The notes under the pieces are model-generated. The model did not search any database, had not been told where the DNA came from, and was given only the letters and a program-made list of their open reading frames with translations. A stretch of 33,831 nucleotides of DNA from a virus (lineage: Duplodnaviria; Heunggongvirae; Uroviricota; Caudoviricetes). Position numbers and translations under genes: made by a program. The stretch is from IMG/VR virus record IMGVR_UViG_2681813321_000006; one strand, given 5' to 3'. This document shows positions 16,873 through 26,452 of this stretch, one piece after another; the stretch's first letter is position 1; every line of letters starts with the position of its first letter.

Positions 16873-18190
16873 TCTCGATGTCCTCGTCGGTAATGGATGC
16901 CCCGATGCCGGTTACGTCAGAATTTTCGCGCAAATCAGTCATAGCGGCTTTCAGTGTCATCAGACCATCACCCAGCGCCGTACTGATTGCGTTGGTAGTG
17001 TTTAACGCCACCGTTGAGCGATCGACATCAGACATTTGCCAGAGCGGGTTAAACTCAAACGTGAAATCGTCCGGCAGCGGCTTGCCAAGCTCCGAACGAT
17101 GCATGATGTCCAGTATCCGCCGCACCGGAAGACGTAAACGCCTCTCCTGTAACGAGCTTACCCGGTCGTAATAGTTGGCAAGGTCTGCATCGCCGGTAGA
17201 AAATCCTTTCGGGGACTGTCCGAACAACCGCACCAGTGGGATACCAACAGCGCCACTAATCTGTTCTGCAAACTGCGAAAGGATGTCATCCAGACCACTG
17301 AAGCTGTACTGATGCGTTTCAAACTTATCCCGCGAGTCCATGAGTGTCATACCTTCATTGCTCTGGAACTGTCGAATCAGGTCGATATTCTTCAGCAACG
17401 CTTCATACGCAGGACCACCAAGTGCGATAAGCTCGCGTAGCTTCTCCACGCTGTAGGTGCGCAGATGCGCCTTGTAGACCAGCTGCGCCGCGCCGACAGT
17501 AGCGCTGTCGAACGCGGTAAGACGATCCCAGATACGCTCTACAACCGACATTCCCCATTCGTTCTCGGTCATCTTCTGCTGAAATGGCAGCGTGACGCCA
17601 TCAAAGCGAATCAGGCGACTGTGATGAATGCGCCAGGCAGGAATTCCCGTTGCTGTGGTCACCACATCGTAAAACTCAGGTTTACCCAGGTCCGGCCCCA
17701 TATCTTTAATGCGGCGGGTCAGTACCGGGTCGATCATCCAGCGGTCGAGCGGGAGAATCCCCTTAAACTTGCCCTTACCGATGGTTTCGGGTCGCAGCGG
17801 GGTCATTGGTGCCTGCCCCTCAATCATGATGAAACCCACCGCGCCGCCGTAGAGGCGCGACCATTTCAGCACGTCATTCAGCGCATCCCAGATTTGCAAC
17901 TCATCCAGTTGTGATTCGAGAATGCCACGATCTTTTGCATCAATTTCCGACGTGATGCGAATGCCTTTGCGGGTCATATCATCCGGGATAGCATCGACTG
18001 CTTCGCCGATGATCCAGGATGAACGATAGGACCATTCCACCAGCATGCGGTTACGACTGGTGAAATTAGCCCGGTAGGTGGATGCTGAGTGCTGGTTAGG
18101 TGTCTGCATCCCTACGCGGGCAATAAAATTCTCATAACCATCAGCTGTGGCCTGCGCAGTTCGCCGCAGGGCTTGTTTGTTTCGTGCCAT
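16724..18190 (-). CDS. Portal protein
   Basis: 488-aa ORF immediately after the large terminase (TGATG stop/start overlap); acidic C-terminal tail. Gene order terminase-portal-gpF. Confidence 0.65.
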   Translation of the reverse strand: MARNKQALRRTAQATADGYENFIARVGMQTPNQHSASTYRANFTSRNRMLVEWSYRSSWIIGEAVDAIPDDMTRKGIRITSEIDAKDRGILESQLDELQIWDALNDVLKWSRLYGGAVGFIMIEGQAPMTPLRPETIGKGKFKGILPLDRWMIDPVLTRRIKDMGPDLGKPEFYDVVTTATGIPAWRIHHSRLIRFDGVTLPFQQKMTENEWGMSVVERIWDRLTAFDSATVGAAQLVYKAHLRTYSVEKLRELIALGGPAYEALLKNIDLIRQFQSNEGMTLMDSRDKFETHQYSFSGLDDILSQFAEQISGAVGIPLVRLFGQSPKGFSTGDADLANYYDRVSSLQERRLRLPVRRILDIMHRSELGKPLPDDFTFEFNPLWQMSDVDRSTVALNTTNAISTALGDGLMTLKAAMTDLRENSDVTGIGASITDEDIENAEDEAPPGIGESDDEPQEPSGGNPLSNQPTQDSAGGRRHRKWSLRWFK

Positions 18191-19812
18191 CAGGCCTGTC
18201 TCCCTAGCAGCTCCCAGATGTTCAGGGCTGAATTCATTGGGGCATAGTTGATCATCACCGAGTCGGCAAGGTTTGGCGATCGGGTTCCATCAGGCTGTTT
18301 ATCAATAACGATTTTTCCCACACCATTAATGGAATAGGTCGGCTGCGAAAGCTCGATGATGAGTTTATCTTTGAGTGCCATGCTACTGCTGATTGAGATG
18401 ATTTCGTCCGGGTTGTAAGCCATACCTTCAACCACGGCGCGCCAGGTATTCTGAAAAAGTTTACGTAACCGCCACCAGCTCTGGGCTTTGGCGTTAGCGA
18501 AGAAGTCCTTGTTCAGACGTGCGGCTTGCCCGTTGTCCCCGCGAACAGCTTCATCATCCGGATCAAATACCGCGCCACTACCTCGAAACGGTGTGGCAAG
18601 TATTGACGGTCGACGCGCAGCGTTACGCAGTTCGTTGATAGCGCGTGCATCGCCGCGAACGCCAGCGCCCAGCCCGTCCTCGTCAAAGCGAAACTCTTCG
18701 AGGTTGTCCTGTTCGCAAAAGCCGAAAACCTTCTCGACGGACTGATAAATGTCGCTGCCCACACCGGACCATTCCCGCACATTTTCCAGGAGGAAGCCAT
18801 GACGGGTGGAAAAGGCATTTTTGTCCCTGCCTTCGTCGGCGACATCCATCGCGCCAAGTCGTTTGCCTGTTGGCTGGATACCCAGTTTGATATGCGCATC
18901 AACGGCAGCCTGTACCCATTCGGATGGAATCAGAACGCCTTCCGCTGATGCGCTGTAGTTCAGATCAAGTTCCTGTGCCACCACCACCGGATTATCGATT
19001 TTCTCGCATTCCCTGCGATACCACTCTTCATCCTTGCGAGGATCATCCCGCCAGTGGAATGTGAATACCGGTATCTTCCCGCCATGACGCTTCTGAGCGA
19101 ACGGGTTAGCCATGCCGTTAACTGAACTCAGGTCGATACGGCAACGCGTCGTTTGTGACAACGCCGCATCAATCAGCAGAGGACGCTGAAGGAATGCAGC
19201 CTCATCAACCAGATAAAGCGTGGTACGGTCACCACGACCAATATTATCGCCAGCCTCGCCTTTGATAACGGCACCAGTTTCAGGAAACTCAACACGCATA
19301 TATGGCGCGTGCTTCTTCTCGCTCCACGAACCGCGAAACTCTACAGGTAGCGTTTCCACGAACTTGCGTGCCTTCCAGAACAATGCTTTCGGGTCACCGG
19401 TGCTGTCGACGTATTCCTCTTTACGGGAGCCGAAACCGATAACCATTTCTTTGTTGAAGAGACAAAGCGAGCAGGCCAGTCCGATCGCGGTCCAACTGAG
19501 CCCCATTTCACGGGATTTTTCGGTAATACCATTCTCCCGATTGCCCCAGCGTTCCATAATCCAGTGGATCCACTCCTCCTGCTTAGGGAAGAGTAAAAAC
19601 GGAATGGTCACCGGCAGGCCATAATCAATATTACGCGGGTCCGTTGTCATGCCCCAGTCGATGATGAACTGAGCCGGATTGGTTCGGTAAAACTGCTTCA
19701 ATACGGGCAATATTTCAGGATTCTGGCGAATGCGCTGTAGGCGTTCCATCCGCCATTCAAAAACCATCTGGTAATCAGGATGTTTAAAATCGAAGGGGAA
19801 TGGTAACGGCAT
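18190..19812 (-). CDS. Terminase large subunit
   Basis: 540-aa ORF between the small terminase and portal. Walker B-like [10 protein letters not shown] present. Confidence 0.8.
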
Positions 19813-19814
19813 AC

Positions 19815-20387
19815 TTAGCCCATCATTTTTCTATACGCCTCTGCAGCCTGCTCCGGCGTTAAGTTGGTAATTTCTGTTCTGACGGGTCCTCCATCAGCGC
19901 CAGTCACTTCATTTTTGACGTTGTCTTTAAACGCCTGAACAGAAACATGACGCCCAAGCAACTCAAGGTTTTTAACCTTATCAGGCCACTTAATCTTTTT
20001 AAGGATCCCGACCATTTCTCTGTCATCTCCTCGCCCCTCAAACATTTCAGCGAGGTTAAATCCACTCAGGTACCGACGCCACGATTCCGGCCACGCAGAC
20101 AGAGGCTTAATACTTAAATCGTCCTCCAGGATGTCAGCCACATCGAGCCTGTCGATCTCAACCAGTCGCATCAGCACATAATTAGCATCAATGCCCAGTT
20201 GATCAATACGCTCCTGCTTTAGCTCGTTAATACGGGCGCGTATCTCAGGTTTACCGTATAGTTCAGCCCCCGTAACATGTGCTCGCCTGGAGACGTAGCC
20301 TGCGCGAATAGCTGCTTGTGTAGCATTCAGATCGACAAGAAACTCGCGACAAAACACCTCGTGTTTTGCTTTCAGCTTCTTAGTCAT
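19815..20387 (-). CDS. Terminase small subunit
   Basis: 190-aa ORF 2 nt upstream of the large terminase. N-terminal [25 protein letters not shown] matches the conserved N-terminal HTH region of P27-type small terminases (recollection). Confidence 0.75.
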
Positions 20388-21436: not shown

Positions 21437-21778
21437 TTACTCCTTAGAGCCACCAAACTTGTTACCGATTACTCGCATTGCAGCCCCACGAATAGCATCG
21501 ACACCGATCAGCCCAACACCACCACCAATGGCAACAGAAAGAGATTTAGGCCATCCAACATACTCAAGAGCGGATGCAAAGGTCAGCGTCAGAGCACCAC
21601 AGAGCAAAATCTCAAGCGTTTTTCGTTTCCAGCCGCCGCCACCGCCAAAATAGGCAATGCGCAAGCCAGCCATAACAATTGACATAACCACTGCGCCCAA
21701 CGGCGTATCTCCACGCCACCAACTTTGTAAGAGTTCCAGTAAGTCAGGCCAGGAATGAGGAGCATTGTGCATTTTCAT
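21437..21778 (-). CDS. Class I holin with dual-start (Met-Lys-Met) motif
   Basis: Three predicted TM segments. Track start 21796 lacks an RBS; ATG-AAA-ATG at 21778-21770 is preceded by GGAGGTG, mirroring the lambda S dual-start arrangement. Confidence 0.65.
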   Translation of the reverse strand: MKMHNAPHSWPDLLELLQSWWRGDTPLGAVVMSIVMAGLRIAYFGGGGGWKRKTLEILLCGALTLTFASALEYVGWPKSLSVAIGGGVGLIGVDAIRGAAMRVIGNKFGGSKE

Positions 21779-21878
21779 ACTTCCCACCTCCGCCATTACG
21801 GGGTGTTGTTGAAAGGCGGGCCCTGCGTATACGCCCGTAGGATTGGGTTATGAGCCGTCCTTCGGTGGGCCCTGAATA

Positions 21879-21902
21879 CAAAAAAAGTTCGCCATAGCGA
21901 AC
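21879..21902 (-). terminator. Intrinsic terminator upstream of the holin (late-operon leader, tR'-like)
   Basis: Minus-strand RNA GUUCGC-UAUG-GCGAAC followed by UUUUUUUGUAUUC. Confidence 0.65.
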
Positions 21903-22129
21903 CTTGTTAAATTTGTTAAAAAAGGAAGTTATTTAACATAATGTACGTTATAGGAACCACACGATCCCCGCTCGCAATAGATTTGCGATGAAAGGCCTAT
22001 TTAATCAACTTAAGTGGTCCAGAATGACGAAATTCGAGTGAATAAAAGGTGCATAAAAAAGGGCAAAAACTGCATAGCGTTTTTTCGCAGCGAAAGCCCT
22101 GTTTTATTAGCTTTTCCCCAGAATGGGGC

Positions 22130-22156
22130 AATAAAAAAGGCCCCCTTGCGGAAGCC
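22130..22156 (-). terminator. Intrinsic terminator between Q region and lysis genes
   Basis: Minus-strand RNA GGCUUCC-GCAA-GGGGGCC (7-bp stem with two G.U pairs, GNRA loop) followed by UUUUUUAUU. Confidence 0.55.
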
Positions 22157-22223
22157 TCTTCGTGATGAACTGTTTTCAACAGATATCAGGCTAATCGGCT
22201 TTTTGGAATTCCACAACTATTTT

Positions 22224-22388
22224 TTATCTTACCTTGATGCCTGATGCCGTCAGATGTTTACGACAGTCCTGAATACCTTCGTTATAACCCGCATCGTAGA
22301 AGCTATCCGGCTTTGCCTTCAGCGCAGGAAGCGTAACGCTGGTAGCTCTTCGTTCGGCCAGAACACCTGCCTGAAAGAGTGTCCACAT
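22224..22388 (-). CDS. Small hypothetical protein (54 aa), second of a coupled pair downstream of Q
   Basis: ATG at 22386-22388 overlaps the stop of the upstream small ORF (TGATG). Product MWTLFQAGVLAERRATSVTLPALKAKPDSFYDAGYNEGIQDCRKHLTASGIKVR. Confidence 0.3.
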   Translation of the reverse strand: MWTLFQAGVLAERRATSVTLPALKAKPDSFYDAGYNEGIQDCRKHLTASGIKVR

Positions 22389-22564
22389 CAACTGAACTGC
22401 TGAATCACAGTAAGTAACATCTTCACTGTACAATTCTCGTTCAATCCGATGCCAAGTTGAGCCTTCATTGATGCGCCAATATTACCTTTGACCTGCAACG
22501 ACAGGTCTGGGTACCTCTGTTCCATGAAGCTTTCAAATCTGTTGCGAACGCTGATCAGAGCCAT
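22388..22564 (-). CDS. Small hypothetical protein (58 aa) immediately downstream of Q
   Basis: ATG at 22562-22564 with AAGGGA upstream, 31 nt after the Q stop. Product MALISVRNRFESFMEQRYPDLSLQVKGNIGASMKAQLGIGLNENCTVKMLLTVIQQFS. Below track cutoff; hand-translated. Confidence 0.3.
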   Translation of the reverse strand: MALISVRNRFESFMEQRYPDLSLQVKGNIGASMKAQLGIGLNENCTVKMLLTVIQQFS

Positions 22565-22595: not shown

Positions 22596-23018
22596 TTATG
22601 CCGCCGAGCAGCTCCTACGCAAAGTCCTGATAGCCTGAGGCTTTGACTGAACCGACTGATCCATTTCGAGCACCACATCCAGCATGGCTAAGCAACCGTC
22701 AATAAATCCCTCTGCCGCCTGAAGCCTCTTCAGAACGTGGGTGTGAGATACGCCGAGCTTCTCACCCATCGCCCGCACGGGCATGGCCTGGACGTAATGC
22801 CACTCAAGGAGCGTGCACAGATACGGATCTTTTTTCTTCAGGCAGCTCATAGCGGAGTTGATGATAAGACCGTCATTGTCACTGCATTTCAGCCTTCCAG
22901 ACTGCGTCGCGGGTAGCAGATTCTTAAACCCGGCTGCAACAGGAGGAAAGTAGACGCTACCACCTTCACTCGCTGCCCAGCCACCCCAGCGCTCTAAAAC
23001 CTGTTGAATATTACGCAT
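22596..23018 (-). CDS. Q: Late-gene antiterminator, lambdoid Q-like
   Basis: 140 aa; N-terminal MRNIQQVLERWGGWAA... and overall pattern match my recollection of Phage_antitermQ-type proteins. Lies upstream of intrinsic terminators and the lysis cassette. ATG with GAGGT upstream. Confidence 0.75.
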   Translation of the reverse strand: MRNIQQVLERWGGWAASEGGSVYFPPVAAGFKNLLPATQSGRLKCSDNDGLIINSAMSCLKKKDPYLCTLLEWHYVQAMPVRAMGEKLGVSHTHVLKRLQAAEGFIDGCLAMLDVVLEMDQSVQSKPQAIRTLRRSCSAA

Positions 23019-23146
23019 AGCTCTGACCTCTACGTTTTGCTACGAAAAAATTTTCTGAGAACCACGTCTGTTTATCCGTGGGTGTGGATAACGCAGTTCC
23101 GATTCGCTTATTACACGCTGTTATGTGCAAAAAATTCCTTGTTCGG

Positions 23147-23319
23147 CCTGTACCAATCTGTACCCACCTGTACCAGCTCTTTTCAAACCTTTTCCCCAAG
23201 CGACTTATATATATATATGGGGTTCTTAGTAATTAGGTTGGTACAGATGGTACAGTTGGTACTGACCTTTAAATTCAATTAGTTAAAATGTACCAACCTC
23301 TATTTTGAGGCTGGTACAG
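23147..23319. repeat. Iteron-like array of the 7-mer CTGTACC/GGTACAG flanking a (TA)n tract; putative replication origin or regulator binding array
   Basis: Direct copies at about 23148, 23158, 23168 (10-bp phasing) and 23289; inverted copies at about 23240, 23249, 23258 (9-bp phasing) and 23313; TATATATATATAT at 23206-23218 between the arrays. Confidence 0.55.
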
Positions 23320-25708: not shown

Positions 25709-25828
25709 TGCTTTCACCTCATACAATTTTAGTGGTATTTAGCAACAACAAATGAGGTTTGTCAAATACAACAAAAATTGTTTTTAATGTGGGTATACAC
25801 ATTAATACAACCCAGAAGGACTAATCCC
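25709..25828. promoter_or_regulatory. Divergent cro/cI control region with operator-like repeats
   Basis: 120-bp AT-rich intergenic region. Perfect inverted repeat TTAATGTG-ggtata-CACATTAA at 25784-25805. ATACAA recurs at about 25721, 25766 and 25805. Confidence 0.5.
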
Positions 25829-26452
25829 ATGTCTCTCGCAGCCCGTTTTAAAGCACGTCGTTTGGAATTAGGAATGACTCAAGTGGAAGTAGCGAATTCT
25901 GCAGGGGTTAGCCAACAATCCATAGAATCCATCGAAAGTGGACGAACCAGAAAGCCACGCAATCTTCTGGATCTGGCTAAGGCCTTGAAATGTAGCCCAG
26001 ACTGGCTACTGAACGGTAAAAATATTATGCCTCTCGCGGAGATAAGTACCAGACGCATACCTATATTAAGTTACGTTCAGGCAGGAGAGCTTACAGAAGC
26101 AAGAGACATAACAGATCTGACAGGGGAATTTGAATATATTTTGGCAGACTCTGACATTCCAGAAACATGCTTCGCATTACGTATTGATGGCGACAGCATG
26201 CAACCAGAGTTTAAAGAAGGAGACATTGTTATCATCGATCCTGATCTATGTCCTGCACCAGGGGAGTTTGTTGTCGCCAAAAACGACGGTCACGAAGCTA
26301 CATTTAAAAAATACCGTCCATTAGGAATCGGCATCGACGACTTTGAATTAATCCCCCTAAATCCTGATTACCCTATTTTTCGTAGTGCAGATATGAACTT
26401 ACAGATCATAGGTGTAATGATCGAACACCGTATTTACCGCCGTAAACGTTAG
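25829..26452 (+). CDS. CI-like repressor (HTH plus S24/LexA-type autopeptidase domain)
   Basis: Refined ATG 25829 with GAAGGA upstream. N-terminal HTH MTQVEVANSAGVSQQSIESIESG; C-terminal GDSM (catalytic Ser) and downstream Lys (VVAKNDGHEATFKKY) as in lambda CI/LexA. Confidence 0.8.
   Translation: MSLAARFKARRLELGMTQVEVANSAGVSQQSIESIESGRTRKPRNLLDLAKALKCSPDWLLNGKNIMPLAEISTRRIPILSYVQAGELTEARDITDLTGEFEYILADSDIPETCFALRIDGDSMQPEFKEGDIVIIDPDLCPAPGEFVVAKNDGHEATFKKYRPLGIGIDDFELIPLNPDYPIFRSADMNLQIIGVMIEHRIYRRKR

Follow-up and report, generated by a model that had tools for sequence, protein, structure and literature searches.

In phage lambda, a constitutive late promoter beside Q gives rise to a short terminated leader, and Q-dependent read-through carries transcription into S-R-Rz (10.1101/651190). 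The Q21/Q933W antiterminators belong to Pfam family PF06530 (10.1101/651190), and in phage 21 the Q-binding element is a direct repeat, TGAGCA, at −25 to −12 (PMC6606751). In the Sakai prophage Sp5, the PR' start was placed experimentally 258 nucleotides (nt) upstream of tR' by differential RNA sequencing (dRNA-seq) and Term-seq, and RNase E processes the terminated leader (tR' at +258) into a small RNA (sRNA) (PMC7547250). We compared these systems with a 427-nt spacer in a caudoviricete prophage (IMG/VR record IMGVR_UViG_2681813321_000006; the window is its whole stretch of 33,831 nt), where the spacer separates Q and a small accessory gene from the holin gene on the minus strand. The spacer is probably the composite late-operon leader of a Q933W/Q21-type temperate phage controlled by Q-dependent antitermination. 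It also carries two conserved elements, a module of ~210 nt and a 55-nt three-way-junction RNA that we call the Y element. A preliminary description had proposed Q-dependent antitermination here; homology, in the form of a PF06530 Q and the PR' architecture of Shiga toxin (Stx) phages, supports that proposal, and the promoter, the two terminators, and the role of a palindrome near the holin are refined below. The features of the leader, in the direction of transcription, are as follows.

22596..23018, minus strand: Q antiterminator gene, 140 amino acids (aa), Q21/Q933W family, identified with the Pfam PF06530 profile
22223-21797, minus-strand operon: the spacer
22180..22216, minus strand: late promoter pR', by homology to the mapped Sp5 PR'
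22133..22157, minus strand: T1, promoter-proximal intrinsic terminator, about +24 to +48 of the predicted pR' transcript
22116..22128, minus strand: small hairpin CCCCA-UUC-UGGGG, between T1 and the module
22122-21912 (core extent listed as 21912..22114), strand unassigned: conserved ~210-nt module, between T1 and T3, in >100 IMG/VR contigs
21880..21905, minus strand: T3, second intrinsic terminator, ~300 nt from the pR' start, from a consensus scan
21818..21872, minus strand: Y element, three-way-junction RNA of 55 nt, by covariation and a covariance model

The Q protein matches all 118 of 118 positions of the PF06530 profile (E 5e-42) and is 42–46% identical to the 144-aa Q of Stx phages; a direct comparison with the Q21 structures 6P18 and 6JNX gave a weak match. 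The preliminary description had judged the late promoter not identifiable by eye, but homology to the mapped Sp5 PR' locates it. Alignment with Sp5 assigns pR' a −35 element TTGTGG (22216-22211), a 17-nt spacer, and a −10 element TAGCCT (22193-22188). In alignment A5, which holds ten sequences (the window, Sp5, and eight relatives), the T, the A, and the last T of the −10 element are invariant in all ten, as is the G-N-TA that follows it. The window and Sp5 also have AAAAATAGTT upstream of the promoter in common, and TGATAAGAGTGGTTAC, the post-Q motif of the layout described below, follows the annotated pR' of phi24B and the PR' of Sp5. Counting back from the Sp5 terminator places the start 6–7 nt past TATCAT, and the corresponding start in the window would lie at about 22182-22180. 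Relatives recognized by their Q (50–71% identity, IMG/VR) repeat one layout: a short palindrome, ~15 nt, TG-N-TA, ~35–45 nt, and a terminator. A CATAAT at the Q stop codon (22600-22595) was considered as the late promoter and set aside because homology put the promoter past the accessory gene.

The palindrome of this layout is, in the window, the 10-base pair (bp) sequence TGGAATTCCA at 22213-22204 (about −32 to −23), which overlaps the −35 element. It is replaced in step with the Q clade by TGTAATTACA, TGCGGYCCGCA, or TGCGCTACGCA, and IAI1-type phages have TGCGCTACGC twice, 16 bp apart. TGGAATTCCA is a candidate Q-binding element; a direct repeat of the TGAGCA type was not found at the window promoter. 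A second conserved TA-hexamer (TATCTG; TAAGAG in relatives) straddles the predicted start, and no clear −10-like (sigma-dependent pause) element was found further downstream of it.

T1 consists of AGGCUUCC-GCAA-GGGGGCCU (22157-22138) followed by U6 (22138-22133), with a GNRA loop, two G.U pairs, and a folding free energy (dG) of −17.1 kcal/mol (z −2.5). It begins 30 nt past the −10 element; the Sp5 counterpart, ACCCGC-CGATG-GCGGGT followed by U7, begins at 31 nt. The stem at this position is rewritten among relatives with pairing retained, as AGCUCCAA/UUGGGGCU in IAI1, GGCUCCC/GGGGGCC in Sx181, ACCUCGC/GCGGGGU in L026, and ACCCGC/GCGGGU in Sp5, each followed by a T-run. Replaced but paired stems, always with the T-run, also occur in L025, L087, L099, and others. 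With E up to 10, the only Rfam matches were weak ones of terminator type at T1, on the minus strand. T3 is AAGGUUCGC-UAUG-GCGAACUUU (21905-21884) with U7 (21886-21880); it has a dG of −10.4 and a z of −4.0, and none of 200 shuffles was equally stable. Close relatives have GGCUCGC/GCGGGCC or GGCUGCGC/GCGUGGCC plus a T-run in its place. Both minus-strand terminators of the preliminary description were thus recovered, with the GNRA loop and G.U pairs of T1 and the U-tract of T3 as described and with small shifts in their limits (22130-22156 is here 22157-22133, and 21879-21902 is here 21905-21880). A terminator consensus scan over 6 kb returned 6 sites against 6.5 expected by chance and missed T1. 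As bare motifs, then, T1, T3, and the holin-proximal palindrome are not above chance, and it is the comparison with relatives that shows them to be under selection. The small hairpin after T1 is compensated in relatives as well (CCCC/GGGG, CCCG/CGGG, CUCC/GGGG), with the exception of IAI1, where GCTCTATTCTCAGT is unpaired.

The Stx phages Sp5, 933W, and phi24B, with a StxS leader and a 144-aa Q, have the same Q family, a homologous promoter, and the upstream AAAAATAGTT. Their leaders have a hairpin with a U-run 30–31 nt after the −10 element and a second terminator 260–300 nt downstream, and their late genes are reached only by read-through. They differ in having no sequence similarity to the window past the promoter, where the body of the window leader is another conserved module, and the window has no tRNA or stx genes and carries the Y element ahead of the holin. 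The regulatory logic is also that of lambda pR'-6S RNA-tR', but lambda Q belongs to PF03589 and not PF06530, and lambda has one terminator (+194) against two or three in the window, together with two conserved modules. Multi-terminator spacers between Q and the holin are annotated in phi24B and HK639. In GenBank, the HK639 late region is annotated with four terminators from a Q-like gene to the holin and with non-coding elements in that spacer; those elements are tRNA genes and an STnc100-like segment, and neither the module nor the Y element is present.

The leader has the architecture of the Stx-phage PR' region, and the simplest interpretation is therefore that Q carries transcription past the terminators. 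On the evidence of homology, a sigma-70 late promoter just past Q and the accessory gene would initiate at about 22181, and its transcripts would meet T1 after ~25 nt, then the terminator-like T2 within the module, and then T3 ~300 nt downstream. In a lysogen, pR' would be constitutive and its RNA would end at T1 or T3, giving a short RNA of either ~50 nt or ~300 nt, the latter comparable to StxS-L of Stx phages. On induction, Q would load onto RNA polymerase at pR' and carry it past all three sites to the holin, endolysin, spanin, terminase, and structural genes. The Y element, which follows T3, would be present in read-through transcripts only, and an sdi-like hairpin would tune the two holin start codons. 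A likeness to the short 6S RNA had been suggested for this leader. The T1/T3 pair mirrors the arrangement in Sp5, where the T1-equivalent hairpin does not define the mapped 3' end (+258); T3 may therefore be the main tR', and the RNA may be ~300 nt rather than ~50 nt.

The module takes up about half of the spacer and was traced through IMG/VR with two independent sub-motifs. Three genomic contexts were found: after Q and T1 and ahead of a lambda-S holin; after a 91-aa helix-turn-helix (HTH) gene and ahead of structural genes, in phages with the same VapE primase and no Q; and between terS and terL. It is 78% identical in a prophage with a different lysis cassette and a Q that is only 44% identical. 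Its most conserved part is a core, TTATGTTAAAT (21941-21931), with GTAAC 8 nt upstream, and it also holds TTTTTTAACAAAT. Further upstream than the core and GTAAC lie an inverted repeat, AAAACAGGGC/GCCCUGUUUU, and direct repeats; the T2 inverted repeat AAAACAGGGC/GCCCUUUUUU occupies 22105-22055, and the direct repeats TTATGCAC/TTATTCAC, 11 bp apart, occupy 22056-22038. The best hairpin begins 34–40 nt after the core in 37 of 83 distinct segments of the module family, and a T-run follows that hairpin in only ~10 of the 83, namely the window clade and three close relatives. The module is a separately conserved cassette within the leader, and neither Rfam 15 nor the searchable literature appears to describe it.

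Several other readings of the module were tried and rejected. A structured RNA was rejected because RNAalifold gave only about −7 kcal/mol on either strand and few pairs. A cos or pac site, prompted by the terS-terL position, was rejected on two grounds: the module accompanies three different terminase situations, and SEN34 lacks it despite 95.6% identity in TerL. The terminase relatives, of the 9NA type, are headful packagers. A 16-aa plus-strand micro-open reading frame (MYVIGTTRSxL...) is consistent in length across members, yet its ATG is missing in one group and its variation has no three-base periodicity (1.14/1.17/1.24 bits). The module repeats bear no relation to the immunity operators TTAATGTG-N6-CACATTAA, and TTATKCAC occurs in the window at chance frequency only, so the reading of the module as a CI/Cro repressor operator was dropped. 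Sigma-28 (GCCGATAA) and sigma-54 readings of the core were made by eye, and their motifs are not conserved across the family. The HTH protein upstream of the module in Q-less phages has no homolog in the window and matched no Pfam family.

Other observations concern the sequence and surroundings of the module. In the contigs L278 and L285 (IMG/VR), it lies ~35–235 nt past the terS stop and fills the gap between terS (336 aa) and terL. Their terL is homologous to that of the window, where the terS-terL gap is just 2–3 nt. An insertion sequence (IS)-like transposase gene follows the module in L285. In Yersinia phage vB_YpM_39 (L353, 3020-3120), a higB2-type toxin-antitoxin operon is inserted right after the core GCCGATAACGTCCATTATGTTAAAT, with its own TTGAAA-17-TATAGT promoter and ATAACC..GGTTAT operators. 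The sequence ACAUUAUG in the window core (21936-21943, minus strand) fits the RNase E motif RN|WUU, and by analogy with StxS processing, a cut at this site would yield a 3' fragment of ~60 nt that begins with the invariant core and ends at T3.

Several points weigh against the late-leader interpretation. For the window phage, the start site, the termination efficiency, and the Q dependence are all inferred. The −35 element is weak (3/6), and the −10 element matches the consensus at only 3/6 positions, though the key A and the final T are kept. The Q-binding element is a candidate only, no clear sigma-dependent pause element was found downstream of the predicted start, and the T1-like hairpin of Sp5 is evidently passed without Q, so that T1 may be an inefficient terminator. 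The leader model by itself does not account for the presence of the module in phages that lack Q or T1. The module also has promoter-like sequences on both strands, so late transcription might begin past T1. For the Y element, a P1 helix of 24–27 bp in SfV-type members and an early-left location exclude a holin-specific role.

These promoter-like sequences are the basis of two alternatives, both of which we consider improbable. In one, the true late promoter would lie inside the module on the sense strand, with a −10 element CATTAT (21943-21938) followed by G-TTAAAT, T3 would be its terminator, and T1 would merely end the early or Q operon. In phages that have neither Q nor T1, the module immediately precedes the late genes, and in a third group it immediately precedes terL. 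The arrangement CATTAT-G-TTAAAT with a hairpin 31–37 nt after the −10 element also echoes the TAGCCT-GA-TATCTG of pR' with its hairpin at 30 nt. A hairpin at that spacing occurs in the 37 of 83 segments mentioned above, and the A at position 2 and the T at position 6 of the hexamer are kept in nearly all variants. It is the segment upstream of T1, however, that aligns with an experimentally mapped PR'; the internal site has no conserved −35 element or TG extension, and a Q-less start past pR' would free the late genes from Q unless T3 stops it. In the other alternative, similarly doubtful, the module would be a plus-strand antisense sRNA gene with the promoter TTGTTA-18-CATAAT (21913-21942) and a start at about 21949, converging on T1; its terminator would be T2 read on the plus strand (about 22055-22112). 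That promoter is the sole consensus match in the spacer (9/12), and its hexamers are invariant in close relatives while 8 nt of the intervening spacer vary. A C.A mismatch on the sense strand of the Sx181-type T2 stem becomes a G.U pair on the plus strand, the module moves between contexts as a self-contained cassette, and phage sRNA genes are known to occur often in Q-to-holin spacers (bioRxiv 10.64898/2026.05.13.724894). Against this, the −35 hexamer loses its conservation beyond close relatives, the last T is altered in a few members in the −10 hexamer, T2 is weaker on the plus strand (z −1.87 versus −2.97), and there is no consensus structure and no Rfam match.

The Y element lies between T3 and the holin and includes the perfect palindrome noted in the preliminary description. 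The palindrome, GCGTATACGC, is present on the minus strand at 21834-21825 with GGGCCC on either side, but it is not a separate element; it is helix P3 (GCG-UAUA-CGC) of a conserved 55-nt three-way-junction RNA. P1 is GGGCCC/GGGCCC (21872-21867 with 21823-21818), and the long arm (21865-21835) is formed by CCG/CGG, AGGA/UCCU, and GG-CUCAUAA-CC, with the loop at 21854-21848. In close relatives, 126 of 126 alignment cells are paired, versus 26–49% with slid partners, and three pairs are compensatory, with double changes giving GGGCUC/GAGCCC, CUG/CAG, and CGGA/UCCG. SfV-type members keep the same junction with a longer P1 (24–27 bp) and a variable P3; 98.4% of their cells are paired and six pairs are changed on both sides. 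In a species-level set, double changes occur in 16 of 22 pairs and 98% of cells are paired, versus 30–50% in slid controls, in an alignment that was fitted to the covariance model, which favors pairing. Across 28 species-representative genomes with a match, ~14 genera of Enterobacterales are represented. A covariance model built from the SfV type only, with the window clade left out, recovered the window copy at E 1.6e-5 and had no match in HK022, HK639, SEN34, or phi24B. G.U pairs appear on the sense strand only, and folding is stronger there (z −2.65) than on the antisense strand (z −1.30). A weak second match to the model within the terL coding region (18893-18954, minus strand; 22 bits, E 0.011) is probably spurious.

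A 17-mer of the element, GGCTCATAACCCAATCC, occurs in >120 IMG/VR contigs and 62 GenBank phages, including SfV, SfII, SfIV, mEp460, cdtI, ST64B, and Stx2c phages. Exact 17-mers outside Enterobacterales were rejected as members: about 30 of 60 matches are attributable to chance, with ~70 chance matches estimated in 596 Gb, and the non-enterobacterial matches have no tRNA genes and nearly all fail the covariance model. A T-run of ≥4 abuts P1 in 85 of 120 distinct contexts, and a Shine-Dalgarno sequence with an open reading frame begins 20–80 nt after P1 in 106 of the 120. From this context, the Y element is a module of 5' leaders, and only polymerases that have read through the neighboring terminator transcribe it. 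The SfV and mEp460 copies follow cI in the early-left operon, with the first gene ~40 nt further on. Rfam 15 had no match at gathering score in the window and no relevant match for the SfV copy, and no description of the element was found in the searchable literature. Just upstream of the Y element in SfV (L259, 2400-2507) there is a weak match to the 3' half of Rfam STnc100 (25 bits, E 9e-4, below gathering), the core of which, CACCGGGAGGCACCCGGCACCA, recurs in the HK639 late leader (L262, about 44890-44920).

The Y element resembles part of a tRNA. The long-arm hairpin of the SfV type has 14 nt (CGGGCTCATAACCC) in common with the anticodon arm of the E. coli initiator tRNA metZ. The initiator arm has three G:C pairs and a CUCAUAA loop, and the window has GGCTCATAACCC, with two G:C pairs. 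The long arm imitates the initiator-tRNA anticodon stem-loop, and the modeled P1/P3 stack is similar to an acceptor/T-arm minihelix. The element is not itself a tRNA gene: ARAGORN found 0 tRNA or transfer-messenger RNA (tmRNA) genes in the window and none at the motif loci in 17 genomes. tRNA-like mimics in mRNAs include the thrS operator and RNase P substrates such as the M3 RNA of phage phi80. The Y element has in common with them an anticodon-arm look-alike in a leader, the stacked P1/P3 minihelix, and, in L087, a GCCA after P1; it differs in having neither D arm nor T loop, and the likeness is one of sequence and predicted fold. It is unrelated in sequence to the 'M3-like RNA' of HK639 and was rejected as a member of that class.

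What the element does can be stated only tentatively. With low confidence, we propose that it is a cis-acting tRNA-like processing and stabilizing 5' module on the late mRNA, dividing the leader from the coding part; such a module could be recognized by tRNA-handling enzymes such as RNase P. A broader proposal, which we hold to be possible but rather unlikely, is that the element is a functional D-armless initiator-tRNA mimic that follows a terminator and heads operons expressed only by read-through, and that the 210-nt module is an autonomous late-control cassette of phages with and without Q. The Y element could also act as bait for VapC-type toxins, which cleave tRNA-fMet within its anticodon arm, or it could be a put-like RNA that modifies RNA polymerase in phages without N. 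The put RNAs of HK022 and the putL-like RNA of HK639 are likewise structured cis-acting RNAs of about 55–125 nt in phage operon leaders. In N-less phages such as SfV and LLS, the early-left leader carries the Y element downstream of cI and just ahead of the first gene, roughly at the position of HK022 putL. The put RNAs differ, however, in forming two stem-loops in a V with a triplex, where the Y element forms a three-way junction and lies after, not before, the adjacent terminator, and an identification with put itself was rejected since no similarity was found to the HK022 early region or the HK639 putL-like RNA. Phage LLS carries a partial match to the 17-mer; according to its authors, LLS lacks N and possibly relies on a put-like RNA yet to be identified, as is currently assumed for N-less lambdoid phages of this kind (PMC12315714).

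Two further explanations would deny the element a present RNA function. A decaying remnant of a phage tRNA gene would account for the 12–14 nt in common with the tRNA-fMet anticodon arm and for the real tRNA genes at the same position in relatives (L080, HK639, and phi24B). It is nonetheless very unlikely: ARAGORN finds no tRNA, 16 of 22 pairs are compensated across ~14 genera with the loop fixed, one fold is kept in two unrelated genomic contexts, and no member has a D arm or a T loop. Least credible of all is that 21834-21825 serves at the DNA level, bound by a dimeric protein or, given its GTATAC, as a restriction-type target. The window palindrome is perfect over 10 bp, as such a site might be, but relatives conserve the pairing and not the sequence or length, replacing P3 with GCGCTTGCGC, GCGG-N6-CCGC, GCTG..CAGC, or hairpins of 30–45 nt. 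Of the two roles offered earlier for the palindrome, RNA structure is thus upheld and a protein-binding site is not.

The remaining features flank the leader or lie at its downstream end.

25492-23300, minus strand: VapE-type primase gene
22224..22564, minus strand: small accessory gene between Q and the late promoter, frameshift-split open reading frames
21785..21805, minus strand: predicted hairpin sequestering the holin Shine-Dalgarno sequence GGAGGUG (21791-21785)
21437..21778, minus strand: holin, lambda S family, with a Met-Lys-Met dual start (ATG 21778 and 21772)

The accessory gene is broken in the window by a frameshift into open reading frames of 58 aa and 69 aa. The small reading frames of the preliminary description lie between Q and the promoter and not within the leader. 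The intact protein (113 aa, MALISVRNRFESFMEQRYPDLSLQVKG...YNEGIQDCRKHLTASGIKVR) is encoded in at least 15 related loci and matched no Pfam family in a profile search; in phage 611R5 the gene is cleanly deleted and both flanks are unaffected. The holin matches Pfam PF05106 (E 1.2e-27), and identical prophages in RefSeq have a 342-nt coding sequence annotated as 'phage holin, lambda family'. The Shine-Dalgarno hairpin has a dG of −11.9 and makes up 70% of the ensemble. The Met-Lys-Met start, the PF05106 holin, and the predicted occluding hairpin recall lambda S and sdi; for the hairpin, the likeness is one of predicted fold.

The window DNA is an E. coli prophage. The 427-nt spacer is present in 139 of 5,426 complete E. 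coli genomes, with one copy in each, and was also seen in induced phages, such as vB_EcoM-611R5. After the spacer, the minus strand encodes in order the lambda-S-family holin, a lambda-R-like endolysin, a spanin, terS, and terL. The packaging module (18190-20387) resembles that of Brunovirus SEN34 (TerL 95.6% identical), whereas the early region, with its VapE primase and Q933W-type Q, differs; the prophage as a whole is mosaic. In the interval from the VapE primase gene to Q (23020-23300), GGTACA/GGTACC repeats flank an (AT)n run and have the look of a replication origin, and phage 611R5 has GGTGACGG iterons at the corresponding VapE-to-Q position (L001, 6400-6700). In the immunity region, between the repressor and a cro-like gene (25780-25830), the palindrome TTAATGTG-TATACC-CACATTAA is a likely operator.

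The terminators themselves are ordinary, as expected of a Q933W-type late leader with a textbook switch. The Y element is a covarying RNA family found across ~14 enterobacterial genera and in well-known phages, and it is apparently undescribed in Rfam 15 and the searchable literature. Its position before the first early-left gene in N-less phages such as LLS makes the question of a put-like RNA directly testable. The 210-nt module marks the start of late gene clusters under quite different regulators, a hint that late control may involve a signal independent of Q.

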